Shown: positions 4,184-48,367, counted from the first letter of the stretch. The stretch: 64,000 nucleotides of DNA from Candidatus Omnitrophota bacterium (GCA_049517335.1 JBEKSD010000001.1:92776-156775); one strand, 5' to 3'. The notes: a model not told the origin generated them from the sequence alone. Program-made: numbers and translations.

Positions 4184-4903
4184 ATGCGGCATATTAATAA
4201 AATACCCGGCCACATCGCCATTATTATGGACGGCAACGGCAGATGGGCTAAAGAGAGGCGCCTTCCCCGTACTGCCGGGCACCGCGAGGGCGTAAAAAGG
4301 ATTAAGGAAGTTGTCAAGGCTGCGGGGGATATGGGAATAAAATTCATAACGTTTTTCGCGTTTTCTACCGAAAACTGGGCTCGCTCAAAAAATGAAATAG
4401 ATATGCTGCTGCGTCTTTTGGATAATTTCCTTGAGCGCGAGGTAAAAGAGCTAGATAAGAATAATATACGTTTTCTGGTGATCGGCAGGAAAGAGCCTGT
4501 CCCGGCCGCTTTACAGAAAAAAATAGCGGCGGCGCAGGAAATGACTAAAAATAATTCAGCTATGACCGTAATCCTCGCTTTAAATTACGGCTCGCGCCAG
4601 GAGATTGTGGATGCGGCGAAGGATTTTGCAAGAGACGTAAAGAGCGGCAGGATTAGGATAGAGGATTTAGATGAGAAAGTTTTTTCCGGTTATCTTTATA
4701 CAGCCGGCATTCCGGACCCTGATCTTTTAATACGCACAAGCGGGGAGATACGCATCAGCAATTTTCTTCTCTGGCAGTTATCATATAGTGAACTTTATTT
4801 TCCCGGCATTTATTGGCCGCAGTTTAATAGAAGAGAACTTTTGAAAGCAATAAGGGAGTTTCAGGCTAGGGAGAGGAGATTTGGAAAGGCCGATGCTGTT
4901 TAA
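4184..4903 (+). CDS. uppS: undecaprenyl diphosphate synthase
   Basis: HIAIIMDGNGRWAKERRLPRTAGHREG and FSTENWARS are signature UPPS motifs. Confidence 0.9.
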   Translation: MRHINKIPGHIAIIMDGNGRWAKERRLPRTAGHREGVKRIKEVVKAAGDMGIKFITFFAFSTENWARSKNEIDMLLRLLDNFLEREVKELDKNNIRFLVIGRKEPVPAALQKKIAAAQEMTKNNSAMTVILALNYGSRQEIVDAAKDFARDVKSGRIRIEDLDEKVFSGYLYTAGIPDPDLLIRTSGEIRISNFLLWQLSYSELYFPGIYWPQFNRRELLKAIREFQARERRFGKADAV

Positions 4904-5687
4904 AAGGATAGTCAGCGCAATATTCCTTATCGGGATAATCATGGGAGTAATTTTCGTAGATTGGCTCTGCGGTTTATTTGTTACCCTTTTTATAATTATC
5001 GGACTTTATGAGTTCTTTAGCATGCTTGAAAAGAAGGGGGTCACTACCTACAAGTATGTCGGTATAGGCATGGGTATAATTATACCTCTTTCAATTGCTT
5101 TCCATTTTGAGCCGACAAAGAGCTGGGAATTGTTATTTATAGTTTTGGCCCTTCTTTTTTTAATACTCATGCAGTTTCGCAGAAGGGCAAATGACGGCGT
5201 TATTGTGGATATTTCAACCACTCTTTTCGGTATACTTTATGTTTCCTGGTTTTTTAGTTTTTTGATTAAAATAAGGTATTTACCCGGCGGACTGGGGATC
5301 CTGGGGGCGTTGTTATTAATTACGAAATTCGGGGATATAGGCGCATTTTTAGTGGGTATTTCCGTAGGGAAAACCCCGTTAATCCCGCGCATAAGCCCTA
5401 AAAAGACAGTGGAAGGGGCTTTGGGAGGAATGATTTTTAGTATTATAGCTGCGATAGCAAGCAAGCCTATGTTGCATTTTAGCTATATACATTTAATCCT
5501 GCTTGCTATCGGCTTAAGTATACTCGGCCAGTTGGGAGACCTTTCCGAATCGCTGATTAAGCGCGATTGCGGGATTAAAGATTCAGGTAAACTCCTGCCG
5601 GGCATGGGCGGTATCCTGGATGAAATTGACAGCTTGTTATTTACTGCTCCGGTGTTTTATTTCTACATGAGTATTTTTAACAGATGA
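4881..5687 (+). CDS. cdsA: phosphatidate cytidylyltransferase
   Basis: Multi-TM protein carrying the CdsA signature KKTVEGALGG..SLIKRDCGIKDSGKLLPGMGGILD. Confidence 0.85.
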   Translation: MERPMLFKRIVSAIFLIGIIMGVIFVDWLCGLFVTLFIIIGLYEFFSMLEKKGVTTYKYVGIGMGIIIPLSIAFHFEPTKSWELLFIVLALLFLILMQFRRRANDGVIVDISTTLFGILYVSWFFSFLIKIRYLPGGLGILGALLLITKFGDIGAFLVGISVGKTPLIPRISPKKTVEGALGGMIFSIIAAIASKPMLHFSYIHLILLAIGLSILGQLGDLSESLIKRDCGIKDSGKLLPGMGGILDEIDSLLFTAPVFYFYMSIFNR

Positions 5688-6838
5688 AAAATATCGCCAT
5701 ACTCGGCTCAACCGGTTCAATCGGCAGAAATGCTTTGGAAGTCATTAGGAATTTCCGGAGTGAATTCAAGGTAACGGCCTTAAGCGCGAATTCCGACGTA
5801 GATGCGCTCTATAAGCAGGCCAAAGAATTTAAGCCTAAATTTATCTGCGTAAGCGATAACTCCGCGGCCGTAAAACTAAGCTCAAGGCTGGGCTCAAGGT
5901 TTAAGGTTTTTACGGGAGAAGAAGGCTTAAAAGAGCTGGTTAAGGAAAAAATTATTGAACAGGTCTTAATCGCTATAAGCGGAAGCAGTGCGCTTATGCC
6001 CTTGCTTTCGGCTTTGGATAGCGGAAAACAAATAGCTTTAGCCAACAAAGAAGCGCTGGTTATGGCGGGAGCAATAGTCATGGAGCGCGCAAAGAAACAT
6101 AAAGCGGAAATCCTGCCGATAGACAGCGAGCAGTCGGCAATATGGCAGTGCCTGGAGGGGGAGGATAAGAATCGCTTGAGAAGCATTTATCTGACTGCTT
6201 CAGGAGGGCCTTTCAGGAAAACAGCGGAAAAAAATTTAAAGCGCATTTCCATAAGAGAGGTCTTAAAGCATCCGCGCTGGAAGATGGGTAGGAAAATTAC
6301 GGTTGATTCGGCAACCCTGATGAATAAAGGTCTAGAGCTACTGGAGGCGATGTTCCTTTTTAATATTCCGGCGGAGAAGATCAGGATACTGATTCATCCT
6401 GAGGCTATAGTGCACTCCATGGTTGAATTTAGCGACGGCGTGGTCCTAGCGCAGCTTTCAAATACCGATATGCGCATACCCATTCAATATGCGCTCACTT
6501 ACCCAAAGCGGCTTAAGAATTCTTTACCGGGGGTGAATTTTTTTAAGTTGAAAGCATTGAATTTTGAGAAACCCGATTTTAAGAAATTTCCCTGTTTGGG
6601 GTTGGCATATAAGGTAGCGGATGAACTGGGCACGGCCCCTGCGGTCATGAATGCTGCCAATGAAGCAAGCGTTGATGAGTTCCTGAAAAGGCGGCTTGCC
6701 TTTACAAAAATAAGCGTAGTCATTGAGAAGGTGCTTTCTAGGCACAAGAATGTCTCGTGCCCAGGTCTTCGTGATATACTTGAAGCAGATAAATGGGCAA
6801 GGCACGAAGCGTATAAAATCATAGGCAGTCTGAATTAA
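5684..6838 (+). CDS. dxr: 1-deoxy-D-xylulose 5-phosphate reductoisomerase
   Basis: ILGSTGSIG NADPH-binding start; ANKEALV; LPIDSEQSAIWQCL. Confidence 0.9.
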   Translation: MKNIAILGSTGSIGRNALEVIRNFRSEFKVTALSANSDVDALYKQAKEFKPKFICVSDNSAAVKLSSRLGSRFKVFTGEEGLKELVKEKIIEQVLIAISGSSALMPLLSALDSGKQIALANKEALVMAGAIVMERAKKHKAEILPIDSEQSAIWQCLEGEDKNRLRSIYLTASGGPFRKTAEKNLKRISIREVLKHPRWKMGRKITVDSATLMNKGLELLEAMFLFNIPAEKIRILIHPEAIVHSMVEFSDGVVLAQLSNTDMRIPIQYALTYPKRLKNSLPGVNFFKLKALNFEKPDFKKFPCLGLAYKVADELGTAPAVMNAANEASVDEFLKRRLAFTKISVVIEKVLSRHKNVSCPGLRDILEADKWARHEAYKIIGSLN

Positions 6839-6842
6839 ATTT

Positions 6843-7922
6843 ATGTTCACTTTACTTATTTTCATTATTATTTTAAGCGTACTTATCATAGCCCATGAAT
6901 TCGGCCATTTTTATGCCGCAAAAAGGGTGGGGGTAAGGGTAGAAAAATTTTCTTTGGGGTTCGGGCCGCAGCTGTTCAGGAAGAAAAAAGGCGATACGGA
7001 ATATAGCATTTCAGCCATTCCTTTAGGTGGGTTCGTAAAATTAGCTGGGGATAATTTGGAAGAGTATAAAGGAAAACAGGATGAGTATTTTTATAAAACT
7101 CCGGGTGAACGTTGTCAGATTATATTTGCCGGCCCTTTTCTTAATTATGTCTTGGGCTTTTTGGTTTTCTGGCTTATATTTGTTTCAGGGTACCCCACGC
7201 TAACTGCTAAGGTGGGCAGCGTGCTTGACGGCTACGGCGCAAAGGAAGCCGGGATTGAAGCAGGCGATAAAATAATGTCTGTTGACGGGGTCAATGTGGA
7301 TTATTGGGAAGATGTGCAGAGGCAGGTAGCTAACAGGCAAGCTGCTGACAAAGTAAAACTTATTATTAAACGCAACGAGCAGGTTATGTCACTGGAGGTC
7401 AAAATTAAAGAGAAAGAAGTCAGTGACCAGTTGGGCTCCAAGCGTTCAATTGGGCTAATCGGGATTACGCCTTATGATGAAATAGTCAGGGTTAGGCACG
7501 GTTTATTTTCTTCATTAATTTTAAGCACAAAGCAGGTCTGGAATATAACTTTGAGCACTTATAAGGGCCTCTGGTTCCTGATAACGGGGAAAATTTCTGT
7601 GCGTGATTCGGTAACCGGGCCTTTAGGCATATTCCTTATTACTTCAAAAGCAGCAAATATGGGTCTGGTTGCGTTGTTGCATCTGGTTGCGGTTTTAAAC
7701 ATAAGCTTGGGACTGTTTAACCTTCTGCCCTTACCGGTACTGGATGGCGGGCATATAATCTTATTGGGCATTGAGAAGATAAGGAAAAGAGCCTTGAGCC
7801 TTAAGGCTGAGGAGATAATTACAAAAATTGGACTCTCGTTGATTATCACGCTTGTGGTTTTTGTTACCTATAACGATATTTTAAGGATTTTCGGGGATAA
7901 GTTCAATAAATTCATAAAATGA
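6843..7922 (+). CDS. rseP: RIP metalloprotease RseP (site-2 protease)
   Basis: HEFGHF zinc motif, a PDZ-like middle region, and the LPLPVLDGGH motif. Confidence 0.85.
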   Translation: MFTLLIFIIILSVLIIAHEFGHFYAAKRVGVRVEKFSLGFGPQLFRKKKGDTEYSISAIPLGGFVKLAGDNLEEYKGKQDEYFYKTPGERCQIIFAGPFLNYVLGFLVFWLIFVSGYPTLTAKVGSVLDGYGAKEAGIEAGDKIMSVDGVNVDYWEDVQRQVANRQAADKVKLIIKRNEQVMSLEVKIKEKEVSDQLGSKRSIGLIGITPYDEIVRVRHGLFSSLILSTKQVWNITLSTYKGLWFLITGKISVRDSVTGPLGIFLITSKAANMGLVALLHLVAVLNISLGLFNLLPLPVLDGGHIILLGIEKIRKRALSLKAEEIITKIGLSLIITLVVFVTYNDILRIFGDKFNKFIK

Positions 7923-8977
7923 TTCGGCCAAGGCATAAGACAAGGGTAGTCAGGATAGGCAATGTTCTAATCGGAGGGAATAATCCGGTAGCCATCCAGT
8001 CTATGGCTAAGTTTAAGACCTCTGATGCCATAAGGACGCTAAAGCAAATTAAGGAGCTGGAAAACGCAGGGTGCGAAATTATCCGGGTTGCCGTTAAAGA
8101 CAGCGAAGACGCGCGTGCGATAAAGCAATTGAAACGGCAGGTAAGGATACCGATAGTCGCGGATATTCATTTTAGCTGGAAATTGGCCATTGAGTCAATT
8201 GAAAACGGCGCGGATAAAATAAGGTTGAATCCGGGTAATATCCAAAAAGAAAAAGAGGTAAAGCAGATAGTCAGCGCTTTAAAAACCGCTAAGATACCTT
8301 TGCGCATAGGCCTTAACTCAGGTTCCGTTAAAGGTGCGGGCTCAAAAAAACTTTCTATGAGCGATAAGCTTATAGAGCGCGCGCTTAGCTACATTAAAAG
8401 AATAGAGAGGTTAAAATTCCACAATCTAGTTATTTCGCTAAAGGCTAATAATGTAATGGATACGGTTGAGGCGTATAGAAAGATTTCCAAACTTTGCAAT
8501 TATCCTTTGCATCTTGGAGTTACTGCTACCGGTTCTCCCTCTAAAGGCATCATTAAGTCCAGTATTGCCTTAGGGGCTTTATTATTGGAAGGTATAGGGA
8601 ATACAATAAGGGTATCTCTTACGGAAGATCCGGTAAAAGAAGTGGAAGCTGCGCGTTGCATATTGGAAGCAGTGGGTTTAAGGAGATTCGGGCCGGATAT
8701 CGTCAGTTGTCCTACCTGCGGTAGATGCGAGGTGGATCTGGCGAAAATAGTAAGAGAATTAGAGAATTCGTTATCCGGTTCTACCAGCAAACCGATAAAA
8801 TTGGCAGTCATGGGGTGCGTTGTCAACGGCCCCGGAGAAGCAATGGAGGCGGATATCGGAGTTGCTTTCGGAAAAAAAGAAGGCATGCTTTTTAAAAAGG
8901 GCAGGGCCGTAGCTAAAGTTTCATTCGAGAACTGCGCAAAAGTCCTGCTTAGCGAAATGGAGAAGCTCAATGGTTAG
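7919..8977 (+). CDS. ispG: 4-hydroxy-3-methylbut-2-enyl diphosphate synthase
   Basis: VRIGNVLIGG start, the RINPGN motif, and the CPTCGRC [4Fe-4S] motif. Confidence 0.9.
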   Translation: MIRPRHKTRVVRIGNVLIGGNNPVAIQSMAKFKTSDAIRTLKQIKELENAGCEIIRVAVKDSEDARAIKQLKRQVRIPIVADIHFSWKLAIESIENGADKIRLNPGNIQKEKEVKQIVSALKTAKIPLRIGLNSGSVKGAGSKKLSMSDKLIERALSYIKRIERLKFHNLVISLKANNVMDTVEAYRKISKLCNYPLHLGVTATGSPSKGIIKSSIALGALLLEGIGNTIRVSLTEDPVKEVEAARCILEAVGLRRFGPDIVSCPTCGRCEVDLAKIVRELENSLSGSTSKPIKLAVMGCVVNGPGEAMEADIGVAFGKKEGMLFKKGRAVAKVSFENCAKVLLSEMEKLNG

Positions 8978-10229
8978 AATAATCAAAGACAAAATCCGTA
9001 AACAGTTTATCGCAAAGCATTCCAGCCTATTCGTTGATGAGAAGGCTGATTCGGGAGAGATAAGGAATGCGATAGCTTATTTGTTGGATGATACGATAAT
9101 GCGCGAGCATATGAAGGTGTCCGAAGAAGATAAAATGAGGGTTATTAACGAGCTAAGCGATGAATTTAGCGGCTTAGGCCCGATAGAGAACCTCGTAAAA
9201 GACCCAGATATAACTGAAATCATGATTAACGGTCCGCAGAAAGTTTACATTGAAAAACACGGGGAGACGAAATTATCAGAGGTGACTTTTGATAATGAAC
9301 AGCAGTTGATGGCCCTTATATATAAAATACTTGCTCCGACAAGGCGCAGGGTAGATGAATCATACCCTTACACGGATGTTTCAATGAAGGACGGCTCCCG
9401 CGTTAATATCATTATCCCTCCTTTGGCATTAAACGGGCCGACTGTCACAATCAGGAAGTTTTCCAAAGAGATACGTACGGTGGAAGATTTGGTAAAACTC
9501 AACACCATGGATAAGCGCATGGCTGATTTTATGGTTAATTGTATCAAGGCTAAAGCAAATATAATTTTTTCCGGCGCAACCGGCTCAGGTAAAACTACTA
9601 CTGTCGGGGTCCTCTCAGCTTATATCGAAGAGAAAGAGCGTATCGTTACCATTGAGGACACTGCGGAGCTTCATTTTAATCAGGAGCACGTAGTCCGGCT
9701 TGAGGCGCGCACTCCGAATATAGAAGGTAAAGGCGAAGTTACCATCAGGGATTTGTTCAAAAACTGTTTACGTATGCGGCCGGAAAGGATTATTTTGGGG
9801 GAAATCAGAAGCTCGGAAGCATTGGATATGCTGCAGGCGATTTGTTCCGGGCACACCGGCTCATTAGCGGTTTTACACGCTAATTCCCCGCAGGAAGTAA
9901 TCTACCGGCTTGAGACCATGATTTTATCTTCAGGGGTACCCATTAGTTTAGCGGCAATCCACCGCCAGATTGCCGCCGCAGTACATTTAATCATCCAGCA
10001 GGAACAGCTCATTGACGGGATAAGAAAAATAACCCATATTACTCAGGTCAACGGCTTAAAGGACGGGCAGGCTAATTTGGAGGATTTATTCTTATATGAT
10101 ATTGAAAGCATAGACGATAAGGGAAAAGTGAAAGGCAGATGGAGGGCAACCGGAGTAAAGCCCGTTTTCATGGGGATATTCAAAAAAGCAGGGATTAATT
10201 TAGGGGAGGAAATCTTTAAAAAGGATTAA
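8970..10229 (+). CDS. CpaF/TadA-family type II/IV secretion ATPase
   Basis: Walker A FSGATGSGKTTT, Asp/His boxes (ERIILGEIR, SGHTGSLAVLHANS), and the overall architecture of Flp-pilus assembly ATPases. It overlaps the ispG stop by 8 nt. Confidence 0.8.
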   Translation: MVRIIKDKIRKQFIAKHSSLFVDEKADSGEIRNAIAYLLDDTIMREHMKVSEEDKMRVINELSDEFSGLGPIENLVKDPDITEIMINGPQKVYIEKHGETKLSEVTFDNEQQLMALIYKILAPTRRRVDESYPYTDVSMKDGSRVNIIIPPLALNGPTVTIRKFSKEIRTVEDLVKLNTMDKRMADFMVNCIKAKANIIFSGATGSGKTTTVGVLSAYIEEKERIVTIEDTAELHFNQEHVVRLEARTPNIEGKGEVTIRDLFKNCLRMRPERIILGEIRSSEALDMLQAICSGHTGSLAVLHANSPQEVIYRLETMILSSGVPISLAAIHRQIAAAVHLIIQQEQLIDGIRKITHITQVNGLKDGQANLEDLFLYDIESIDDKGKVKGRWRATGVKPVFMGIFKKAGINLGEEIFKKD

Positions 10230-10230
10230 T

Positions 10231-11496
10231 ATGCGCTGGAGAAAAACTTTCATACCCACATTAAAAGAAGTACCGCAGGAAGCGGAGTCAGTCAGTCATC
10301 AGTTGTTGTTGCGCGCGGGCCTCATACGTATGCTTATGGCAGGCAGTTATTCTTACCTGCCGCTGGGCCTTAAGGTATTGAGCAACGTTGAGATGATTAT
10401 CAGGCAGGAAATGCAGGCAATAGGAGCTGCTGAGCTGCTCCTGCCGGCATTGCAGCCTTTGGAATTGTGGCAAAAAACAGGCCGGGATAAGGATATCGGA
10501 GAAGTAATGTTTAAGCTTAAAGACCGGCGGGGAAGGAACGTCTGTCTTGGGCCGACACACGAAGAAATCATTACGGAATTAATAAAAAACCATATTTCAA
10601 GTTACCGCCAGCTGCCGCTTGTCCTCTACCAGATACAGACAAAATTCCGCGACGAAATCCGGCCGCGTTTCGGGTTAATCAGGGCCTGCGAATTTATTAT
10701 GAAGGACGCCTATAGTTTTGATTCTGATGAAGCGGGGCTGGATAAGAATTATGAGTTAATGTTTAAAGCTTATAAGAGGATTTTTAAAAGGTGTGGGCTT
10801 CATGTTTTAATCACCGAAGCTGATTCTGGGGTTATGGGAGGCAAGGTCTCCCATGAATTTATGGTTGCGGCCAAAGACGGAGAAGACAGGGTTTTGCTTT
10901 GCTCGGCCTGTTCTACCGTGGTAGCTTTTAAGGAAGGCCAGAACGAAACCTGCCCTAAATGCCGGAAAAAGGCGGATATAGTAAACGCAATTGAGGTAGG
11001 CCATATTTTTAAGTTAGGTGTAAAATACAGTAACGCCTTGGCTGCAAAGTTCCTGGACGCGCAGGGCAAGCAGCGCGATTGTATTATGGGGTGTTACGGT
11101 ATAGGGGTCTCACGCATGATTTCAGCCATAATTGAACAGAATAATGACCCGTCCGGAATTATCTGGCCCCAAGAGGTGGCTCCTTATAAAGTAATAATTA
11201 TAGCCCTTGACGTCACGGAAAAGAAGATTATTGAGAGCGCGGAATCTTTTTACAGGGAACTGGAAGAAAACAATATTGAGACTCTGTTTGATGACCGCGA
11301 TGAAAGGGCGGGGGTTAAATTCAAAGACGCCGATTTGCTCGGTATCCCGCTCCAGCTCATTATCGGCAAATCTTCGCTTAAAGACGACACGTTGGAATTA
11401 AAATTACGTAAGGATGGAAAAAAAATAGTCAAAACAAAAACGGAGATATTGGATGTAATAAAGGGATATATCCATGGACAGGCAGGCGGTTATTGA
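10231..11496 (+). CDS. proS: prolyl-tRNA synthetase (short form, no insertion/editing domain)
   Basis: Class II aaRS motifs (FRDEIRPRFGLIRACEF, GCYGIGVSRM) plus a C-terminal anticodon-binding domain. Confidence 0.85.
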   Translation: MRWRKTFIPTLKEVPQEAESVSHQLLLRAGLIRMLMAGSYSYLPLGLKVLSNVEMIIRQEMQAIGAAELLLPALQPLELWQKTGRDKDIGEVMFKLKDRRGRNVCLGPTHEEIITELIKNHISSYRQLPLVLYQIQTKFRDEIRPRFGLIRACEFIMKDAYSFDSDEAGLDKNYELMFKAYKRIFKRCGLHVLITEADSGVMGGKVSHEFMVAAKDGEDRVLLCSACSTVVAFKEGQNETCPKCRKKADIVNAIEVGHIFKLGVKYSNALAAKFLDAQGKQRDCIMGCYGIGVSRMISAIIEQNNDPSGIIWPQEVAPYKVIIIALDVTEKKIIESAESFYRELEENNIETLFDDRDERAGVKFKDADLLGIPLQLIIGKSSLKDDTLELKLRKDGKKIVKTKTEILDVIKGYIHGQAGGY

Positions 11497-11932
11497 AGAA
11501 CTGAAACTAATCATTGAAGGGTACTTAAAGGAAAATAATCTTGAGTTGGTGGATTTTGTTTACCGTTATGAAGGCAGGAACCTTATATTAAGGGTTATAG
11601 CAGACCGGCCCGAAGGCGGGATAACTATGGATGAATGCGCTCAACTGAACAGGCAGATAGGCGCCATATTAGACCAAAAAGACATTATTCAGGCAAAATA
11701 TATTCTGGAAGTTTCTTCCCCTGGGCTTGACAGGCCTCTGAAGAGTAAAAACGACTTTGCCCGCTACCTAAACAGGAAGGTCAAATTTTTCTTAAATGAT
11801 TTCATAAACGGTAAGCTTGAGTGGGACGGCGTAATCATCCGAACGGATGACAAATCGGTATACGTCGATATAGAAGGCAGTATTGTTGAGATATCTTATG
11901 CGAAAATAGCCAAAGCAAAACAGGTAATTTAG
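11474..11932 (+). CDS. rimP: ribosome maturation factor RimP
   Basis: LEVSSPGLDRPL motif, and the conserved rimP-nusA-infB order. Confidence 0.8.
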   Translation: MDRQAVIEELKLIIEGYLKENNLELVDFVYRYEGRNLILRVIADRPEGGITMDECAQLNRQIGAILDQKDIIQAKYILEVSSPGLDRPLKSKNDFARYLNRKVKFFLNDFINGKLEWDGVIIRTDDKSVYVDIEGSIVEISYAKIAKAKQVI

Positions 11933-11947
11933 GATTGGAGAAAAAAT

Positions 11948-13192
11948 ATGAGTCAGGAATTACTCGCAATTATTGAACAGATTGAAAGAGAAAAAGGGAT
12001 AAAAAAAGAAGTCTTAATACAGGCGGTTGAAAGTGCTTTATTGAGCGCGGCAAAAAAAGTTATTGATTTAAAACCTGAAGAGGAATTTAAAGTTGAACTT
12101 AATCCGGCAACAGGCAATATTAAAGCCTTCCGTAATAATGAAGAAGTGACTTCCATTGATTTCGGCCGCATTGCCGCCTCAACCGCGCGGCAGGTCATTA
12201 TCCAGAAAATGCGCGAAGCTGAGAAAGACGTGGTTTTTAACGAATTTCAGGGTCGGGTGGGGGAAATTGTCAGCGGTATGGTTTACCGTTTTGAAAAAGG
12301 AAATATCATCGTTGACCTTTTAGGTAAAGCCGAAGGCCTGTTGCTTAAAAGAGAACAATCGCCGAAAGAAGAGTTCAAGCAGGGACAGCGTATGCGCGCT
12401 TTTGTTTTGGAGGTAAAGAAAGAAGCACGGGGGGCGCAGATTATCCTTTCCCGCGCGCACCCTAATTTCGTCAGGAAATTATTTGAACTTGAAGTTCCTG
12501 AAATTTACGAAGGTATCGTGGAAATTAAATCTATATCCCGTCAGGCGGGCGAACGCACGAAGATCGCGGTTGCGTCCAAGAACGATAAAGTTGACTCGGT
12601 TGGCGCCTGCGTGGGGATGCGCGGTAACCGCGTGAGGAATATCGTCAATGAAGTGCAGGGGGAAAAAATAGATATTGTCCGTTACAGCGAGGATATCCGG
12701 GAATATATCAAAGCCGCGCTTTCGCCGGCAAAAGTAGCCGAGATAAAAATGGATAAAGAGAACAATAAAGCGGTAGTCATCGTAGAAGACGACCAGTTGT
12801 CTCTGGCAATAGGTAAGCACGGCCAGAATGTCCGTCTTGCTTCGCGTTTAGTGGGATGGGAACTGGATATACGCACTAAGACCGCTGCTAAAGAAGAAGC
12901 CGAGAAACAGGCGGCTTTGGCAGAAGTAGCTACGGCTAAAGAAACGCAGGAGCGGGAAGAAGTTCCTGTTGAAAAGCCGAAGGCTAAGGAGAAAAAAAAG
13001 AAAAAGAAAGCAGAAGCCGGTTTGCCGGAGTTACCCGGTATAGGAGAGAAGACCCTGGAAAGCTTAAAAGGTGCAGGTTATAAAAACGTAAATGATATCG
13101 TTAATGCGACTATTGAGGATTTGACCAAAATAAAAGGCATCGGCGAGAAGAAAGCGGAAAAGATTATCGCTGAAGCTAAGAAATTAAAATAA
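11948..13192 (+). CDS. nusA: transcription termination/antitermination factor NusA
   Basis: S1 and KH domains (GMRGNRVRNI, LAIGKHGQNVRLAS) and a C-terminal HhH region. The lysine-rich linker contains an A8 run. Confidence 0.9.
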   Translation: MSQELLAIIEQIEREKGIKKEVLIQAVESALLSAAKKVIDLKPEEEFKVELNPATGNIKAFRNNEEVTSIDFGRIAASTARQVIIQKMREAEKDVVFNEFQGRVGEIVSGMVYRFEKGNIIVDLLGKAEGLLLKREQSPKEEFKQGQRMRAFVLEVKKEARGAQIILSRAHPNFVRKLFELEVPEIYEGIVEIKSISRQAGERTKIAVASKNDKVDSVGACVGMRGNRVRNIVNEVQGEKIDIVRYSEDIREYIKAALSPAKVAEIKMDKENNKAVVIVEDDQLSLAIGKHGQNVRLASRLVGWELDIRTKTAAKEEAEKQAALAEVATAKETQEREEVPVEKPKAKEKKKKKKAEAGLPELPGIGEKTLESLKGAGYKNVNDIVNATIEDLTKIKGIGEKKAEKIIAEAKKLK

Positions 13193-13211
13193 AGTTGAAA
13201 GGCGAATTATT

Positions 13212-15344
13212 ATGGTGAAAGAAAAGAAAGAGAAACTTAAGGCCGTTAAAAAAACGCCTGCTGCGGTAAAGATGAAGAAGGCGCAAAGTGCCGCTAAGGC
13301 TATCAAGCCGAAGGCTAAACCTAAGGCTCATCCTGCAGAAAAGCCTAAGGTTAAGAAAGCCGCGATTTTAAAAGTGAAAGCGGTAAAGGCAAAAGAAGCG
13401 ATAGTAAAGTCGGCTCCGGTTCCGGTTAAAGTAGAGCCGCCAAAGCTTCAGGTAAAAGTTACACCCAAAGTTGAAATCAAGCCCCAGCCTAAAGTTGAAG
13501 CTAAGCCTCAAGTAAAAGTTGAAGCCAGGCCTCCTCAACCGGTCCCCGCTCCTGTTCCTATTACTGTTGTGCCTGAGCAGGAGACATTATGGGAACTGGA
13601 AATCCAACTGCCGGTAACCGTAAAAGATTTGGCAGTAAAACTACAGGAAAAACCCTCCGTTATTATCAAACATCTTATGGCTATGAAGGTAATGGCAGGG
13701 ATAAATCAGAATGTTGACGAAGAAACCGCAGCAAAAATTTGCCGGAAATTTGGCTGTAAAATAAAGAAAGCTCTTGGCAAAGAAGAGCAACTGTTGGGAG
13801 CGCATGAAGAGGAAGACAAGGCGAAAGATTTACTCGCGCGAGCACCCATAGTAACTTTTATGGGCCACGTTGACCACGGCAAAACATCGTTGCTGGATGC
13901 GATAAGAAAAACCAAGGTTGCCGATTCTGAGCACGGAGGCATTACCCAGCATATCGGCGCCTATCGCGTTAAACTTACGCACGGAGAAATTACTTTCCTT
14001 GATACACCCGGCCATGAAGCGTTTACCGCCATGCGTGCAAGGGGTGCTAGGATAACCGATATCGTAGTTTTGGTCGTAGCTGCGGATGACGGGGTAATGC
14101 CCCAGACTCAGGAAGCAATTGACCATGCCCGGGCCGCGGGAGTGCCGATAATCGTTGCCATGAATAAAATAGACAAACCTTCGGCAAACCTTGATAAAGT
14201 TAAGAAACAATTGCAGGCGGTTGACCTTACTCCGGAAGAATGGAACGGCAAGACCATTACCGTTGGTGTTTCGGCAAAGACAGGGGAAGGTATTGACAAT
14301 TTGCTTGAAATGATCCTGCTTGAAGCGCAGATGCTCGAGCTGAAAGCAAACCCGAAGCGCCTTGCAAAAGGAGTGGTAGTTGAAGCAAGAATGTCCAAAG
14401 GCAGGGGGCCGGTGGCAACGTTGCTTATAGAGAATGGTACCCTACATCTTAATGAGAATATCATCGTAGGCAATTTATACGGCAAGATCCGCGCTATGTT
14501 TAATGACCACGGTCAGTCGGTAACAAGTGCTGGCCCCGGGTTTCCGGTTGAAGTCTTAGGCATAAGCGGTGTCCCGGAAGCCGGTGAGCAATTCTTTGTT
14601 ATAGCTGATGAGAAAGAAGCCAAAGAACTGGCGCAAGCGCGCCTTGAAAAAGAGAGGCAGCAGCAGGTAAAGACGGCAAAGAAAATAAGCCTTGAAGATT
14701 TGCACGCTGAAATTATAGCCGGTAAAATTAAGGAATTAAAAATTATCATCAAGTCCGACGTTCAGGGTTCACTGGAAGCGATAAGAGATACGTTAGCTAA
14801 GTTGAACGTTTCGGAAATAAAAGTTGAAGTAATTCACACCGGGGTGGGCAATGTTAACAGTTCGGACGTAATATTAGCCATTGCCTCAAACGCTTTAATC
14901 GTCGGTTTCAATATTGAAGCGGATGAGCGGGCCAAGGAATTAATATCCAAAGAAGGGATTGACTTTAGGACGTATAATATTATTTATGAGCTGGCCAATG
15001 ACATCAAAGCGGCGGTTGAAGGGATGCTTGCGCCTAAATTAAAGAGGGTATTTTTAGGCAGGGCTGAAGTGAGAAAAGTATTTAAGCTTTCCCGTTCCGG
15101 AACTATTGCCGGCTGCTATATCACTAAAGGTAAGATTAACCGCAACAGTTTAGTTAACCTTATCAGGAACGGCGAAGTGGTTTTTGAAGGAAAACTTTCA
15201 TCCTTAAAGCGCTTCAAAGACGATGTCCGCGATGTGGCGGAAGGCTTTGAATGCGGTATGAGTTTAGGCGGTTACGACCAGATGATGGAAGGCGACATTA
15301 TTGAGGCGTACGAGATAGAAAAGATAGCCAGAAAACTGGAGTGA
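13212..15344 (+). CDS. infB: translation initiation factor IF-2
   Basis: Low-complexity KPKAKPKA N-terminus. G-domain motifs [20 protein letters not shown] and NKIDK. Confidence 0.9.
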
Positions 15345-23918: not shown

Positions 23919-24482
23919 ATGAGCTATAAAAACGAGACTTTAAGAAAATACCTTGATGATTTAGCGGCTAAACTTCCTGCTCCCGGAGGTGGTTCAGCGT
24001 TGGCAATGAACGCGGCTTTAGGCGCGAGCTTAATCACTATGGTTATAAATTTCACCCTCGGCAAGCCAAAATACGCTAAATATGAAACGGAGCTGAAAAA
24101 AGATTTGATAAAATCCGAGAAATTAAGGGATGAATTTCTGCACTTGGTAGATTTGGATATCGCAGCTTATAATAGTAAGGATGCGCGTAAAGCGCTGAAT
24201 GTCCCTTTTATGGTTAGCCGCCTTTGTTTTGAGGGCATAAAACTTTGCCCTGAGCTGGTAAAGAAGGGTAACGTTAATTTAATCAGCGATGTGGTGGTAG
24301 CGGCCATACTTTTAGAAAGCGCTTTTGTGAGCGCGTATTTTAACGTTGAAATAAACTTAAAAATTTTAGAGGATAAGGAATTAAGCAGGACAATAAGAAA
24401 AGAACTGGCGATAAAGAGGAAAGAAATTACTAAAATCAGGCTAAAAACGGAGGAAAAAGTTGGCGAAATTATTAGAGGGTAA
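23919..24482 (+). CDS. cyclodeaminase/cyclohydrolase-family protein (FchA-like methenyl-THF cyclohydrolase)
   Basis: The LPAPGGGSALAMNAALGASL motif of the formiminotransferase-cyclodeaminase domain. It overlaps folD downstream. Confidence 0.65.
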   Translation: MSYKNETLRKYLDDLAAKLPAPGGGSALAMNAALGASLITMVINFTLGKPKYAKYETELKKDLIKSEKLRDEFLHLVDLDIAAYNSKDARKALNVPFMVSRLCFEGIKLCPELVKKGNVNLISDVVVAAILLESAFVSAYFNVEINLKILEDKELSRTIRKELAIKRKEITKIRLKTEEKVGEIIRG

Positions 24483-25302
24483 ACCCATTGCGGAAAAAAT
24501 AAAGGAAGAAATACGCTCGGAAGTTGCCGCATTAAAGATACGCCCGGTTTTAGCATCCATACAAATCGGAGAGAATGCCGGAGCCGCTGCTTACGTAAAA
24601 TCGCAGGCTAAAGTTGCCGAGAGTTTAGGCATTGAATACCAATTGCATAAATTGGCAGCGGAAACAGCCGAAACGCATTTAATTGATTTTATCCAGAAAT
24701 TAAATCTGAATAAATCAGTGCACGGAATAATCGTGCAGATGCCCCTTCCCGCGGGAATAGATTATAAAAAAATAAGCCAGTATATTGAGCCGAAGAAGGA
24801 CGTAGAAGGGATGCATCCGGCTAATATCGGTAAGCTTATTTTCGGCAAGGCAAAGTTAGCCCCTTGCACCGCAGCTTCGGTAATGGAATTAATAAACTCA
24901 ACCGGCGTTGATTTATACGGAAAAGAAGTTGTTATCGTAGGCCACAGCGAGATAGTAGGTAAACCGCTTGCTCTTTTATTGCTTGAAAAGTTTGCCACGG
25001 TTACAGTCTGTCATATCGGCACCAGCAAAGCAGGCAAACTTGAGGAGCATGTTAAAAAAGCTGAGGTCCTAATCGTGGCAGTGGGTAAAGCCGGCCTGAT
25101 TAAAGGGAATTTAGTTAAAGAAGGTGCTATCGTTATTGATGTCGGTATTAACCGCGTTGCGGATAAAATAGTCGGGGATGTGGAGTTTGAGGAGGCAGAG
25201 AAGCGTGTCTCCTATATTACGCCGGTTCCCAGAGGCGTCGGCCCGCTGACCGTGACTATGTTGATGCGCAATTTAGTTGAGACAGCCAAGTTGCAACAAT
25301 AG
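24460..25302 (+). CDS. folD: bifunctional methylene-THF dehydrogenase / methenyl-THF cyclohydrolase
   Basis: Rossmann motif VVIVGHSEIVGKPLALLL, and the PVPRGVGPLTVTMLMRN C-terminus. Confidence 0.9.
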   Translation: MAKLLEGKPIAEKIKEEIRSEVAALKIRPVLASIQIGENAGAAAYVKSQAKVAESLGIEYQLHKLAAETAETHLIDFIQKLNLNKSVHGIIVQMPLPAGIDYKKISQYIEPKKDVEGMHPANIGKLIFGKAKLAPCTAASVMELINSTGVDLYGKEVVIVGHSEIVGKPLALLLLEKFATVTVCHIGTSKAGKLEEHVKKAEVLIVAVGKAGLIKGNLVKEGAIVIDVGINRVADKIVGDVEFEEAEKRVSYITPVPRGVGPLTVTMLMRNLVETAKLQQ

Positions 25303-25632
25303 ATGAAAACCATAGCTTTATTGACCATATCCAATGTCTTTATGACATTTGCTTGGTACGGTCATTTGAAGTTTAAGAATTCACCCCTATGGATTGTAGT
25401 TTTAGTAAGCTGGGGAATCGCGCTTTTTGAGTATTGTTTTCAGGTGCCGGCAAACCGCATCGGCCACTACCGTTATTCCGCAGCCCAGCTTAAGACCATT
25501 CAGGAAGTTATTACGCTGGTAGTTTTCAGCGTCTTTTCAATATTATACCTCAAGGAAGAATTCCGCTGGAACTACGCGGTTGGTTTCTTATGTATCTTAG
25601 CGGCAGTATTTTTTATCTTTAAAAAGTGGTAA
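25303..25632 (+). CDS. DMT-superfamily small membrane protein (DUF486-like)
   Basis: 109 aa with about three TM segments and a FEYCFQVPANRIG motif. Confidence 0.55.
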   Translation: MKTIALLTISNVFMTFAWYGHLKFKNSPLWIVVLVSWGIALFEYCFQVPANRIGHYRYSAAQLKTIQEVITLVVFSVFSILYLKEEFRWNYAVGFLCILAAVFFIFKKW

Positions 25633-25850
25633 ATTTTTGCGGGTCCTGTCGAGTCGCATTTTCGCAGGATTCGTTTAGATTTTTCCTCCGCTTTGCGGGG
25701 TCGGCAAAGACTTTTCGTATTTTTGGCGGCTGCGGAACTCGCGCCTCGAGCTCTGGCTCTCGGCGCCCAAACATCCTCACCGTTCCGGTGTTGTCGCTTC
25801 GCTCCACCGGGATTCCCAAAAATACTCAAGTTCTTTGCCTAAGAATCTAA
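25633..25850. other. GC-rich non-coding block, candidate structured RNA of unassigned family
   Basis: About 220 nt visibly richer in G+C than the flanks, with many short hairpins (CCGCTTTGCGG, CACCGTTCCGGTG, GGCGCC/GAGCTC palindromes). The only ORFs are Arg-rich reads of GC-rich sequence. I could not recognise a tRNA, tmRNA, SRP or RNase P signature. Confidence 0.25.
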
Positions 25851-25930
25851 ATTCGCTCGAAATCACGACAGATTCATTAAGGATATTTGTTCTGAATTAG
25901 GTATCGTGTCTCTGGAATTATGTTGGAAAC

Positions 25931-25952
25931 CTATAAACTACACGGCAGATAG
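25931..25952 (+). repeat. 22-bp direct repeat, left copy (CTATAAACTACACGGCAGATAG)
   Basis: 19/22 identical to the copy at 26446-26467. It ends 6 bp before the ATG of the PIN-like ORF. Confidence 0.6.
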
Positions 25953-25958
25953 ACTATT

Positions 25959-26445
25959 ATGGCTTTAAAAATAACATTAGATACAAATTGTCTTTTTGAT
26001 TATTTTGAACGTAATCCTCAATATATTGAAAAGTTAATAGAGTTTCAGAACGAGGGTAAAATAGAACTTGCAATTACAACAAGAGTTCAAGCTGACACTT
26101 TCGGTAAAAGAGAAGATAGCCCTATTTGGCAGAAAAATAAAATCCTTTCCCTGTATTACAATTGGGAGTATTGGAAGGCACGATGTTTCTTATTATGATA
26201 GTGGTGATGTTTATGCAGGCGACGATGATAATTTGCAGGATTTAATTCAATCTTGCATAGGGAATGACGTAAAAAGAATCATCGATGTCGACCATCTGAT
26301 TGCTCACATTATTAATAAGAGAGATATTTTTGTAACGAGCGATACTGACGATTTTATAAAACACAGAGATTGTTTGGAGCAAAAGTGTAGTATCAAGATT
26401 ATGACTCCAGAAGAATGTATCAATTTTCTGAAAAGTCAAACATAG
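25959..26445 (+). pseudogene. PIN-like nuclease gene split by a frameshift
   Basis: Frame A (25959..26198) begins MALKITLDTNCLFDYF..ELAITT, which gives PIN N-terminal Asp and Glu positions. Frame B (to 26445) carries DVDHLIAHIINKRDIFVTSDTDDF, a PIN C-terminal acidic motif. The frames can be joined by a 1-nt slip in the A-run GCAGAAAAATAAAAT near 26130-26145. The islet is locally AT-rich. Confidence 0.55.
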
Positions 26446-26467
26446 CTATAAACTATACGGCACGTAG
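26446..26467 (+). repeat. 22-bp direct repeat, right copy (CTATAAACTATACGGCACGTAG)
   Basis: Begins 1 bp after the stop of the PIN-like ORF. It pairs with the 25931-25952 copy. Confidence 0.6.
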
Positions 26468-26515
26468 CCCAAAGGTTAGTGGTTATTTTATAAAATTTTA
26501 GGAGTTTTGGCTTGA

Positions 26516-26538
26516 GCGTGCGTTAAAATTTTTGGCAC
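26516..26538. promoter_or_regulatory. palindromic operator-like site GCGTGCgttAAAATTTTTgGCAC (site 1)
   Basis: Dyad-symmetric GTGC..AAAATTTTT..GCAC. A second near-identical copy lies about 112 bp downstream. Confidence 0.35.
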
Positions 26539-26632
26539 AGCTATTAAAACACAGTCTGCAAGGATTTACGACGAGCTAAGGCGTGAGAATGCGATAGTCT
26601 AATCGAAAGCGAGGAGTAAACCGCGGCAGACG

Positions 26633-26653
26633 GCAAAAATTTTTAGCACGCGG
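26633..26653. promoter_or_regulatory. operator-like site GCAAAAATTTTTaGCACGCgg (site 2), 35 bp upstream of the prepilin-like ORF
   Basis: Shares the AAAATTTTT(G/A)GCAC core with site 1, and the GCGTGC/GCACGC ends are mutually inverted. It sits where a promoter for the 26688 ORF would lie. Confidence 0.35.
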
Positions 26654-26687
26654 AAGACAAAACGCCTAAAAGGAAAATAAGACAAAG

Positions 26688-26933
26688 ATGAAGAAGATTA
26701 AAACTGGTTTTATGCTTATAGAGTTCTTGTTGGTTCTGGTGATAATTATGTTTGTTGTATTCAAGGTATGGGATATTTATTTTAAGAAGCCGGCCTTGAA
26801 CAAAGAGACCCAAAAAGTTATGACTGAGCAAGGCGTAGACACTACAAATTATAAAACAATTAGTGATAGCATCAAAAATAAGGTAGAGGATATTCAAAGT
26901 CAGCATATTAATGAGCTGATGAAAATACAATAG
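26688..26933 (+). CDS. prepilin-like small protein (type IV pilin N-terminal cleavage/methylation motif)
   Basis: MKKIKTG|FMLIEFLLVLVIIMFVV matches the class III signal G/F-x-x-x-E followed by a hydrophobic helix. Only 81 aa. No other pilus genes are adjacent. Confidence 0.5.
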   Translation: MKKIKTGFMLIEFLLVLVIIMFVVFKVWDIYFKKPALNKETQKVMTEQGVDTTNYKTISDSIKNKVEDIQSQHINELMKIQ

Positions 26934-26980
26934 AGCGGAAATACCCTTGCAGCTTTAGATATTTATGGTAAAATTTTGCA

Positions 26981-27850
26981 ATGACCTTTAAAGAAAAATT
27001 ATTAGCAGGAAAATTCGTAGTTACCTCGGAAATCGGCCCGCCAAAGGGTATTGAAACCCATAAATTATTGGAAGACGCCGAGCTTGTGCGCGGTAGGGTT
27101 GACGGAATCAATGTCACGGACCTACAGAGTTCAGTGATGCGGCTTGGATCGCTTGTTGTCTGCAGCCTCTTAAAACAAAAAGGCTTTGAGCCGATATTCC
27201 AGATTACCTGCCGCGACAGGAACCGCTTGGCGCTGCAATCTGATATTTTATCCGCAGCTGCCTTAGGTATAGAAAATTTGTTGATTTTAACCGGCGACCA
27301 TACCACCATGGGCGACCATCCTGAGGCAAAGCCGGTATTTGATTTGGATTCGGTGCAGCTTTTAGAGGTGGTGCGTAAACTCCAGGCAGGCACAGATATG
27401 AAAGGTAATAAACTGGAAGGCGCTGCGCCGAAATTTTGCGTGGGCGCGGTAGTCAATCCGGGCGCAGACCCTATTGAGCCGCAGATTCTTAAAATGGAGA
27501 AAAAAATAGAAGCCGGAGCGCAATTTTTTCAGACCCAGGCCATTTATGATATAAGAATATTTGAAAATTTTTTAAGCAAAGTCAAACATCTTAAAGTCCC
27601 CATTTTGGGCGGGATAGTATTATTGAAGTCCGCGGGTATGGCGCGTTTCATGAATAAAAATGTTGCCGGCGTAAGCGTGCCGGATAATTTGATTAAAGAA
27701 ATGGAAGAAACAAAAGATAAAGTTGCAAAATCCGTTGATATTGCCTCAAGGCTGATTAAAGAATTAAAACCCCTCTGTCAGGGCATACATATTATGCCCA
27801 TAGGCTGGGATACAAAAGTACCGTTAGTGTTAGACGCATCAGGATTGTAA
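26981..27850 (+). CDS. metF: methylenetetrahydrofolate reductase (MetF-family)
   Basis: FVVTSEIGPPKG, INVTD, and the overall MTHFR TIM-barrel pattern. It ends 2 bp before acsB. Confidence 0.75.
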   Translation: MTFKEKLLAGKFVVTSEIGPPKGIETHKLLEDAELVRGRVDGINVTDLQSSVMRLGSLVVCSLLKQKGFEPIFQITCRDRNRLALQSDILSAAALGIENLLILTGDHTTMGDHPEAKPVFDLDSVQLLEVVRKLQAGTDMKGNKLEGAAPKFCVGAVVNPGADPIEPQILKMEKKIEAGAQFFQTQAIYDIRIFENFLSKVKHLKVPILGGIVLLKSAGMARFMNKNVAGVSVPDNLIKEMEETKDKVAKSVDIASRLIKELKPLCQGIHIMPIGWDTKVPLVLDASGL

Positions 27851-27852
27851 TT

Positions 27853-47700: not shown

Positions 47701-47707
47701 GATTACA

Positions 47708-47736
47708 TTGACAGGCATTTTAAGGTATGATACTAT
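47708..47736 (+). promoter_or_regulatory. sigma70-like promoter, TTGACA-17nt-TACTAT
   Basis: Hexamers at 47708-13 and 47731-36. A perfect RBS AAGGAGG follows, before the ATG at 47783. Confidence 0.5.
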
Positions 47737-47782
47737 TATAAAAATTAGTAAACTATTTACTTAACAACATAAGGAGGAAAAG

Positions 47783-47932
47783 ATGGCAGAAACAGGATAT
47801 TGCGTAAAATGCAAAGCTAAAAAAGAAATGAAAGATGAGCAGAAAGTTACTATGAAGAATAAGCGGCAGGCTATGAAGGGTAAATGCTCAACCTGCGGGA
47901 CTGGCATGTATAAGATTTTAGGGAAAAAATAA
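47783..47932 (+). CDS. small zinc-ribbon protein (DUF5679-like), not in the ORF track (49 aa)
   Basis: ATG at 47783 six nt after AAGGAGG. It translates to MAETGYCVKCKAKKEMKDEQKVTMKNKRQAMKGKCSTCGTGMYKILGKK and ends at TAA 47930-32. The CxxC..CxxCG layout is typical of DUF5679. Confidence 0.6.
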   Translation: MAETGYCVKCKAKKEMKDEQKVTMKNKRQAMKGKCSTCGTGMYKILGKK

Positions 47933-48013
47933 GGAGCCAGTAAAATAGAAACAAAAAAAATAGCATTACGCGTTGCTTCTATTGCTAAATCCAAAAAAGC
48001 GCAGAAAGTCACC

Positions 48014-48295: not shown

Positions 48296-48367
48296 GAATT
48301 AACGACCATCCGAATACGCCAAGATTACCCCGGCATCATTCACCAGAGTTAATTTATCACTTAGGAT

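Follow-up and report, generated by a model that had tools for sequence, protein, structure and literature searches.

Why would a motor ATPase of the kind that drives Tad/Flp pili be encoded in the middle of a housekeeping gene array, outside any pilus locus, and what could it be driving there? The question is raised by a stretch of 64,000 nucleotides (nt), one strand, from a Candidatus Omnitrophota bacterium (GCA_049517335.1 JBEKSD010000001.1:92776-156775; the whole of it is called the window below), in which an open reading frame (ORF) for a CpaF/TadA-type ATPase sits between ispG and proS, two genes of which the first usually runs straight into the second in Firmicutes-type gene orders. This housekeeping-linked ATPase, hereafter HK-CpaF, represents a distinct clade located in the housekeeping array and kept in every related locus recovered, which is undescribed in the literature searched. 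Regarding its role, the reading that we prefer, at a probability of roughly 0.5, is that HK-CpaF is a constitutively co-expressed, extension-type Tad motor that would act in trans on a platform encoded elsewhere.

Identity and conservation of the ATPase

The protein matches the Pfam family T2SSE (PF00437, 1.4e-54). Its best NCBIfam score is obtained with the model of the TadA-family "helicase/secretion neighbourhood" ATPases (TIGR03819), yet with 298.7 bits against a cutoff of 373.15, followed by the VirB11 and FlaI models, and no NCBIfam model reaches its own cutoff. The neighbourhood meant in the name of TIGR03819 is presumably a helicase gene beside the ATPase, and Pfam searches of the larger ORFs revealed none in the window. 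Scores also fall below the cutoffs for VirB11 (TIGR02788, 216.5 bits against 249.95), TrbB (187 against 304.55) and PilT/PilU (TIGR01420, 67.8 against 319.1, the three-helix N1 domain being present as well), and no gene of a type IV secretion system was detected by Pfam on the larger ORFs of the window. Among solved structures, Caulobacter CpaF (8rkd/9e24) is the nearest by sequence (E 2e-103 and about 50% identity for residues 23-401), with FlaI (3e-37), VirB11 (1e-34) and PilT (3.5e-12) as weaker matches in the same PDB search. An AlphaFold2 model of moderate confidence (pLDDT 76, residues 226-263 below 50) displays three N-terminal helices, an N2 domain and a RecA-like C-terminal domain (CTD). 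Foldseek placed CpaF 8rjf at the top of its matches to this model (TM 0.74, compared with 0.64 for FlaI), and the secondary structure of the model together with the CpaF alignment gives the domain order helical N1, glycine hinge, N2 and RecA-like CTD. Judged by all sequence and fold tests, HK-CpaF is a bona fide member of the CpaF family that departs from it in its neighbourhood, as it is not encoded beside tadB/tadC in a tad/cpa locus. The ORF apparently encodes a full-length, catalytically competent hexameric motor of the CpaF/TadA type, in agreement with the original prediction of a complete tad-type ATPase with Walker A and B, Asp and His boxes; no grouping with a known housekeeping ATPase family emerged, the protein being a CpaF.

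The best protein matches are annotated as Candidatus Omnitrophota or Omnitrophica and comprise at least 120 clusters (90% identity) at 64-92% identity, nearly all of them 415-423 aa long. The genome scan covered one genome per GTDB species, and loci were taken from the best 80 of 566 matches. The 25 distinct Omnitrophota loci recovered (22 GTDB species genomes, the NCBI assembly L003 and the metagenome contigs L115 and L116), which range from 29 to 56% in GC content, all carry the ATPase in the slot uppS-cdsA-dxr-rseP-(ispG)-ATPase-proS-rimP-nusA-infB, and the arrangement of the window is found identically on independent assemblies, namely a JGI contig and a Logan contig. The upstream gene order is shared by every one of the 19 core HK loci, as far as their contigs reach, and by L024, L115 and L116, and the downstream order proS-rimP-nusA-infB is the same in related loci. 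In three divergent loci (L026, L031 and L039) ispG is missing from the slot and the ATPase still lies between rseP and proS, which means that the stable anchors are rseP and proS. The relatives recovered thus all keep the ATPase in its place, and the ispG-proS slot as first described holds on its proS side, with rseP replacing ispG as the other anchor. The window copy carries the marks of the HK clade, that is, a length of about 415-423 aa, the rseP/ispG-proS slot, A203, S293, the SPQ(D/E) motif and grouping with the paralogue CpaF2 described below. Four of the loci are placed by Table S1 of Seymour et al. in the class Velamenicoccia (GTDB Koll11), order Gygaellales, families Profunditerraquicolaceae and UBA12090.

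The word "inserted", used of this gene in the original prediction, implied a recent event, which is not what its composition and rate of change indicate. Over 18 core loci the mean identity to the window copy is 63.8% for the ATPase, compared with 60.0% for ispG, 57.9% for rseP and 60.1% for dxr, and with 67.9% and 72.7% for the slower neighbours proS and nusA; the GC content of the gene is 43.4% against 43.3% for the window, and both GC and GC3 match those of the neighbours. Composition, evolutionary rate and breadth of synteny together identify an ancient resident and no recent insertion, so that HK-CpaF is an old and vertically inherited gene under housekeeping-level constraint. Recent horizontal insertion, an assembly chimera or a decaying pseudogene, for which only the unusual position would speak, are contradicted by the data and practically negligible, considering the agreement of the JGI and Logan contigs, the recurrence of the slot in 25 loci, the matching GC and GC3, the intact ORF with invariant catalytic residues and the lack of repeats, integrase or tRNA at the ends of the ATPase gene. 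A separate observation concerns loci L011 (12515-13744) and L015 (12512-13777; UBA6253, Profunditerraquicolaceae), where a further CpaF-like ATPase gene, fast-evolving (38-48% identity) and with the Loop 8 Asp lost, is found between proS and rimP, proS thus being flanked by two ATPase genes.

At least 117 HK orthologues of 400 aa or more exist at 64-92% identity to the window protein, and 117 of them were compared by residue with 105 CpaF2 sequences and 44 canonical CpaFs (positions in Table 1). The core catalytic residues (the Walker A Lys and its flanks, the Walker B G-E, the Asp-box I-E...E and the His box) are intact in all three groups, and so are the arginines that correspond to R223, R347 and R359 of Caulobacter CpaF. 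Within the HK set, the Walker A residues G202, G205, K208, T209 and T210 occur in 117/117 sequences and G207 in 116/117, the Asp-box residues D230 and T231 in 116/117 and A232 in 112/117, and R144 is also an invariant arginine. The HK N1 domain aligns with the helical NTD1 of CpaF; CpaF2 has no N1. In Caulobacter, the hinge, Loop 8 and central-loop motifs are predicted to contact CpaG/CpaH (TadB/TadC) and are required in vivo, with G147A/G149A in the hinge abolishing CpaF function, and with D208 (Loop 8) and E331-G334 (central loop) as predicted platform contacts (PMC11300603). The equivalent residues D129, E252, G253 and G255 are present in 117/117 HK sequences. D129 is also found in 44/44 canonical CpaFs and is Ser in 83/105 CpaF2 sequences, in which G70 of the hinge is replaced by E, D or K and the central loop is degenerate (D in 57, E in 20 and A in 7 sequences at position 252). 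That CpaF2 has lost the platform-contact motifs means that such motifs can decay when not needed, and the HK copy, as read from its residues, looks like a fully competent, platform-engaging CpaF.

Tad partners, paralogues and possible roles

No T2SSF (TadB/TadC) protein was found by Pfam on the 50 larger ORFs of the window (nine ORFs of at least 100 aa were not scanned individually), by a T2SSF profile run against every stop-to-stop window ORF of at least 40 aa, or by tblastn and phmmer with Omnitrophota TadB and TadC as queries. A six-frame regular-expression scan of the 64 kb for Flp and type IV prepilin motifs was negative, as was the search for CpaE and secretin, made via Pfam on the larger ORFs only. 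With four negative searches, the predicted absence of TadB/TadC, CpaE and Flp from the 64 kb stands, for CpaE within the scope just given. With the identical 30.8-kb JGI contig (L001) added, the region read begins 10 kb upstream of the ATPase, and from there to 54 kb downstream the window's own genome contains no tad genes. Likewise, no T2SSF protein or tad/pilin gene was detected within 10 kb of the ATPase in the 22 GTDB species genomes and L003, the loci being limited to 10 kb on each side. A first T2SSF profile, built on Vampirovibrio seeds, overlooked nothing in the window. It likewise gave no TadB/C match up to 10 kb from the ATPases of Omnitrophota tad clusters; in these clusters TadB/C are encoded about 12 kb downstream of CpaF2, and TadG served as the stepping stone to them. 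Among non-Omnitrophota relatives (41-53% identity), searched with Pfam-verified seeds, 43 of 54 have a TadB/TadC pair in the locus (fused in L028), usually directly downstream of the ATPase, which is the canonical tad layout. CpaF-like genes with no TadB/TadC within 10 kb occur elsewhere too (L029, L052, L060, L066, L071, L043 and L047), meaning that orphan copies are not unique to Omnitrophota. L029 (5070-6338), L052 (9941-11026), L060, L066 and L071 belong to high-GC (64-68%) metagenome-assembled genomes from outside the Omnitrophota; the proteins of L029 and L052 group near the HK clade and have no similarity to the HK N1 domain.

Complete Omnitrophota tad clusters were found at L035, L058, L086/L089, L087 and L116, each with two ATPases. 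Their order is peptidyl-prolyl isomerase (PPIase), RcpC, a secretin with a TonB_C tail, a 722-aa fusion of CpaE (TadZ) and CpaF (CpaE~CpaF), the 354-aa CpaF2, a conserved soluble protein, nine to twelve Flp-like pilin genes in tandem (motif ..QSxLEY..), TadG, and then TadB and TadC (coordinates: L035 5464-20748; L116 66-11679). CpaF2 is always in a tad cluster, directly after CpaE~CpaF. The protein that follows it (460-481 aa; L035 12450-13895, L086 11185-12603, L087 12330-13763, L116 2853-4232) is present in every tad cluster seen and has a basic, helix-turn-helix-like N-terminus, no Pfam match and no predicted transmembrane (TM) segment; a divergent platform and a transposase were both considered for it, but with its fixed position it does not behave as a transposase would. 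A tad cluster that appears to have decayed is found in L090 (complete genome CP070807.1, 1430747-1451382), with CpaF2 truncated to 212 aa and the pilin, TadG and TadBC part replaced by a 1809-aa ORF on the opposite strand.

The relation of these clusters to HK-CpaF is seen on L116, a 40-kb contig of 29% GC obtained from a metagenome scan with Omnitrophota TadB. It holds CpaE~CpaF, CpaF2, pilins, TadG, TadB and TadC and then, on the same strand, an HK ATPase that is 55% identical to the window copy and lies 7.6 kb past the end of TadC, with era, greA, two small genes, uppS, cdsA, dxr, rseP and ispG in between and proS following. Since this contig carries all three ATPases, the HK gene is a third paralogue and not the missing motor of an ATPase-less cluster. 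The earlier suggestion that the partners are encoded distally is therefore only partly sustained: complete tad clusters do exist elsewhere, but they already own two ATPases. It could also be supposed that HK-CpaF is simply the ATPase of a tad operon whose tadBC and flp are to be found a little beyond the window's edge, and in the 29%-GC lineage (L116 1-20828, where L28 lies on the minus strand between era and greA, and L115 and L117, which show parts of the L116 layout) the tad cluster, encoded on the same strand as uppS, indeed stops only about 2.8 kb short of that gene. This is nevertheless very improbable, as no such operon was met in the window's own genome over the range given above, or at up to 10 kb from the gene in the 22 GTDB species genomes, and the L116 cluster has its own two ATPases and is set off from the HK gene by era, greA and the five genes from uppS to ispG. 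The proximity in this lineage may reflect an ancestral neighbourhood of the HK ATPase, or coincidence. Genome 231 has KO calls for K02283 and none for K12510/K12511, and its contig L027 holds tandem tad ATPases, a mismatch that makes KO calls unreliable for the co-occurrence of ATPase and TadB/TadC. Linking the tad-cluster genomes to the window via CNNM and UvrD was rejected, as these proteins, at about 31% identity, are not orthologues.

Trees were built by neighbour joining (NJ) with Kimura distances only and group the HK copy with CpaF2. The bipartition uniting HK, L029/L052 and CpaF2 received a bootstrap of 100% (200 replicates) and, in a larger set, of 98% (300 replicates), and the CpaE~CpaF copies group with canonical, TadBC-adjacent CpaFs. 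Monophyly of the HK set itself is weak, at 27-33%, or 41-65% with L029/L052 included. HK and CpaF2 have in common A203 in Walker A (Gly in canonical CpaFs), I192, V301 and SPQ(D/E), and three signature columns unite them, compared with none and one for the two alternatives; S293 is specific to the HK clade, other groups carrying Thr. Despite a raw identity of the window protein that is slightly higher to a CpaE~CpaF copy (49%) than to CpaF2 (46%), the bootstrap values and the three signature columns against one point to a sister relationship between HK and CpaF2, and HK-CpaF is, on these comparisons, one of three CpaF paralogues in the phylum, nearest to CpaF2.

In the model that we prefer, the overlap or abutment of the ATPase gene with its neighbours, with no intergenic terminator candidate, would couple its transcription, and probably its translation, to essential genes, which would result in constitutive production. 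The hexamer would dock by its N-terminal face (hinge, Loop 8 and central loop) on a TadB/TadC-type inner-membrane platform encoded elsewhere, and ATP hydrolysis would drive the assembly of a Flp/Tad filament, as for CpaF, making HK-CpaF a constitutive or alternative extension motor beside the two ATPases of the cluster. The model is favoured by the identity of HK-CpaF as a CpaF, its catalytic constraint and its conserved placement, by the platform-facing motifs that stay invariant in HK copies, by the complete tad clusters with TadB/TadC in the phylum, by L116, which pairs such a cluster with the HK ATPase on one contig, and by the case of Myxococcus xanthus KilF, which is encoded apart from the KilG/KilH platform genes of the same machine (PMC8460266).

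Several points weigh against it. The case for co-transcription is one of gene spacing, and a third motor looks redundant beside the CpaE~CpaF of the tad clusters, which is canonical in appearance and carries identical N-face motifs. The HK family appears commoner than CpaF2, its more than 120 clusters still being at 64% identity or above, compared with a CpaF2 list that reaches down to 49% within 120 matches. Moreover, Tad complexes are missing from many Omnitrophota according to Seymour et al. (PMC10066038), and some HK-CpaF carriers may lack any tad cluster. The retraction-face Arg is found in 37/44 canonical CpaFs and is mostly Gln in HK copies (Q in 78, E in 18, R in 10; Q in 72 CpaF2 sequences), and in Caulobacter R387A impairs retraction (Whitfield et al. 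preprint, bioRxiv 10.64898/2026.02.24.707734). Finally, the invariance of the N-face motifs could reflect hexamer mechanics, not platform contact, and these motifs are said to be conserved among type 4 filament motors in general (PMC11300603).

Some of these points also fit a neofunctionalised motor with no pilus role, engaged in another growth-tied process (envelope, protein export or nucleic-acid handling), which would explain both the lock-in to an essential-gene array and the housekeeping-like evolution. Such a role agrees with the lack of tad and pilin genes around the HK gene over the ranges given above, with the two ATPases owned by the tad clusters and the redundancy with CpaE~CpaF, with a rate of change equal to that of essential neighbours, with a family apparently wider spread than CpaF2, with the absence of Tad from many Omnitrophota reported by Seymour et al. 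(PMC10066038), and with the CpaF-like genes lacking adjacent TadBC in other phyla (L029, L052, L060, L066 and L071). The superfamily also has non-secretion members, such as the archaeal Holliday-junction ATPase PINA, which appears among the weak NCBIfam and fold matches, but very weakly (NCBIfam score of 29 bits). The invariance of the hinge, the Loop 8 Asp and the central-loop EGxG in 117/117 sequences, when the same motifs are lost in CpaF2, argues mildly against a non-pilus role, as do the full CpaF architecture, kept at about 50% identity to a working pilus motor, and the lack of an alternative partner candidate conserved beside HK-CpaF. It is the main alternative to the preferred model and to be taken seriously, although we doubt it.

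To our knowledge, CpaF-type ATPases are paired only with TadB/TadC-type platforms, which counts against HK-CpaF being the motor of a second type IV filament-like machine, with another T2SSF-family or PilC/GspF-type platform elsewhere in the genome. Such a machine, which was not seen in any locus read, seems unlikely, even if the N-face motifs are conserved in spite of the canonical-looking ATPase of the main cluster, type IVa pilus genes are reported in other Omnitrophota classes by Seymour et al. (PMC10066038), and a 2026 preprint on complete Omnitrophota genomes (10.64898/2026.06.07.730766) reports secretion or pilus genes dispersed near giant ORFs. More speculative than the preferred model, and rather doubtful, is a three-motor Tad machine with a division of labour so far undescribed in Tad pili or, alternatively, an HK copy working outside pili in an essential, growth-coupled process of these ultra-small cells. 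In the three-motor version, HK-CpaF may be the constitutive canonical CpaF hard-wired in the uppS-infB array, the CpaE~CpaF fusion the second motor, and the N1-less CpaF2, with its extension-face motifs lost, may be a PilT-like retraction or auxiliary motor. If true, either version would contrast with the view of one bifunctional ATPase per Tad system.

Gene junctions, coordinates and other features of the window

The gene boundaries agree with those first described (Table 1). ispG (7919..8977) shares with the ATPase ORF an 8-nt overlap, ATGGTTAG, and the layout of this junction suggests translational coupling; at the other end proS starts 1 nt past the ATPase TAA, with AGGA sitting 5 nt ahead of its ATG. 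The upstream genes start at 4184 (uppS), 4881 (cdsA), 5684 (dxr) and 6843 (rseP), and the co-directional, packed run goes on past infB into scpA and ruvB with gaps of at most 19 nt or overlaps. A consensus scan of the array gave no candidate for an intergenic terminator, and promoter-like sites in it were at chance level (32 found against 32.3 expected), both being weak evidence. From its tight spacing, the ATPase is very probably co-transcribed with its essential neighbours, as had been proposed.

Table 1. Coordinates of HK-CpaF, its junctions, the flanking arrays and its motifs in the window (aa, residue numbering of HK-CpaF; fractions refer to the 117 HK orthologues)
Feature	Position (nt)	Strand	Remarks
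HK-CpaF (housekeeping-linked CpaF/TadA-type ATPase)	8970..10229	+	ATG start, 419 aa ORF
ispG-ATPase junction	8959..8977	+	GGAG 8959-8962, 7 nt ahead of ATG 8970; ispG stop TAG 8975-8977
ATPase-proS junction	10222..10233	+	AGGA 10222-10225; stop TAA 10227-10229; one base; proS ATG 10231
Upstream array uppS, cdsA, dxr, rseP, ispG	4184..8977	+	Pfam and NCBIfam; gaps of at most 4 nt or overlaps
Downstream array proS (short form), rimP, nusA, infB	10231..15344	+	Pfam and NCBIfam
N1 domain	8970..9170	+	Helices at residues 2-21, 28-46 and 52-67 (DSSP on AlphaFold2 model)
Hinge 1, G68-L-G70-P71 (Caulobacter G147/G149)	9171..9182	+	G68, G70 117/117; P71 113/117
Loop 8 motif, R125-RRVDE-S131	9342..9362	+	D129 = Caulobacter D208, predicted TadB/C contact
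Walker A, G202-A-T-G-S-G-K-T-T210	9573..9599	+	Read in sequence
Asp box, T227-IEDTAE-L234	9648..9671	+	I228, E229, E233 117/117
Central (pore) loop, I251-E-G-K-G-E256	9720..9737	+	E252-G255 = Caulobacter E331-G334, predicted TadB/C contact
R268 (Caulobacter R347)	9771-9773	+	117/117
Walker B, R273-IILGE-278, and R280 (Caulobacter R359)	9786..9809	+	G277, E278, R280 117/117
His box, S293-G-H295 ... H303	9846..9878	+	Read in sequence; His-box residues invariant
P307-Q308 (Caulobacter P386-R387, retraction face)	9888..9893	+	Motif census

The rest of the window consists of housekeeping and central-metabolism genes, among them queuosine genes, trmD, L19, Wood-Ljungdahl genes, polA, rho, prfA, the trp operon, argS, recJ and pnp, and over positions 1-64000 every ORF with a family assignment is on the + strand. 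A tRNA scan of the 64 kb found none, and an Rfam scan found no family at its gathering threshold; stretches with no assignment lie at about 25633-26067, 26446-26980 and 47701-48367. The proS gene (10231-11496) encodes a short, 421-aa form, which bacterial ProS models match in two pieces apart from each other, one at 1-229 and one in the C-terminal part, and appears to be without the inserted editing domain. Wood-Ljungdahl genes stand in a row at 23919-30396 (an FTCD_C-like cyclodeaminase, FolD, a DMT_6 (DUF486) membrane protein, MTHFR and an 847-aa ACS/CODH beta subunit), consistent with acetogenic Omnitrophota. Upstream of uppS, at 612-2572, an OmpA-like gene is followed by one for a small coiled-coil/TM protein (weak DUF3450 match), an arrangement also present in L003; in L116 (13452-14425) a putative lipoprotein and a small TM protein precede uppS and are possibly equivalent to this pair.

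Comparison with known systems

Omnitrophota are suspected predators or parasites according to Seymour et al. (2023, PMC10066038), where Tad systems are called from TadB, TadC and RcpA and where tad ATPases and the ispG-ATPase-proS synteny are not mentioned. Neither HK-CpaF nor its synteny is mentioned in the 2026 preprint on complete genomes (10.64898/2026.06.07.730766), a proteomics paper on Velamenicoccus does not mention pili, and no paper linking Omnitrophota CpaF with ispG or proS turned up in the literature searched. Tad machinery has a central place in the predatory or parasitic lifestyle proposed for the phylum, and surveys that call Tad from TadB/TadC/RcpA alone, as Seymour et al. did, would miss HK-CpaF. 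Conversely, the annotation "CpaF family protein" in an Omnitrophota genome is not evidence of a local pilus locus. Were HK-CpaF merely a redundant spare motor, the matter would amount to a modest note in comparative genomics; the three-ATPase Tad repertoire is the part that specialists would follow up. Tad pili are discussed as type IV filaments with a single ATPase for extension and retraction, and a Tad system is regarded as having one ATPase that is bifunctional (bioRxiv 10.64898/2026.02.24.707734). Three coexisting CpaF paralogues offer a natural experiment in this respect, with one that keeps the platform-contact motifs, one that lost them and one that is fused to CpaE.

Among known proteins, the closest counterpart is Caulobacter CpaF (TadA of Aggregatibacter), the motor of the Tad/Flp (type IVc) pilus, which has the same N1-hinge-N2-CTD organisation, about 50% identity over 379 residues, and identical catalytic and predicted contact motifs (hinge GxG, Loop 8 Asp, central loop EGxG). 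HK-CpaF differs in lacking the disordered N-terminal extension of that protein (residue 23 aligns with residue 106 of the 501-aa chain in 9e24), in being encoded outside a tad/cpa locus as one of three paralogues, in having mostly Gln for Arg387, and in its signatures A203, S293 and I192. Within the phylum, the nearest paralogue is CpaF2 (about 354 aa; L035, L058, L086, L087 and L116), with which HK-CpaF shares the signatures already listed. CpaF2, unlike HK-CpaF, is without N1, the hinge G70, the Loop 8 Asp and the central-loop Glu, and lies inside the tad cluster.

Several paralogous hexameric motors working on one platform are familiar from type IVa pili, where PilB, PilT and PilU may be encoded partly off the main locus. 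These motors belong, however, to other subfamilies, and PilT matches HK-CpaF only at E 3.5e-12; orientation models are summarised by Whitfield et al. (bioRxiv 10.64898/2026.02.24.707734). A CpaF-type ATPase separated from its platform genes is found in the Kil system of Myxococcus xanthus, a Tad-like predation apparatus. Unlike HK-CpaF, KilF has an FHA domain at its N-terminus, shares a tad-like cluster with a secretin and a prepilin peptidase, and is the sole ATPase of its system (PMC8460266), whereas the HK gene stands among housekeeping genes and two other ATPases exist. With these differences in mind, KilF appears, by analogy, to be the best precedent for action in trans.

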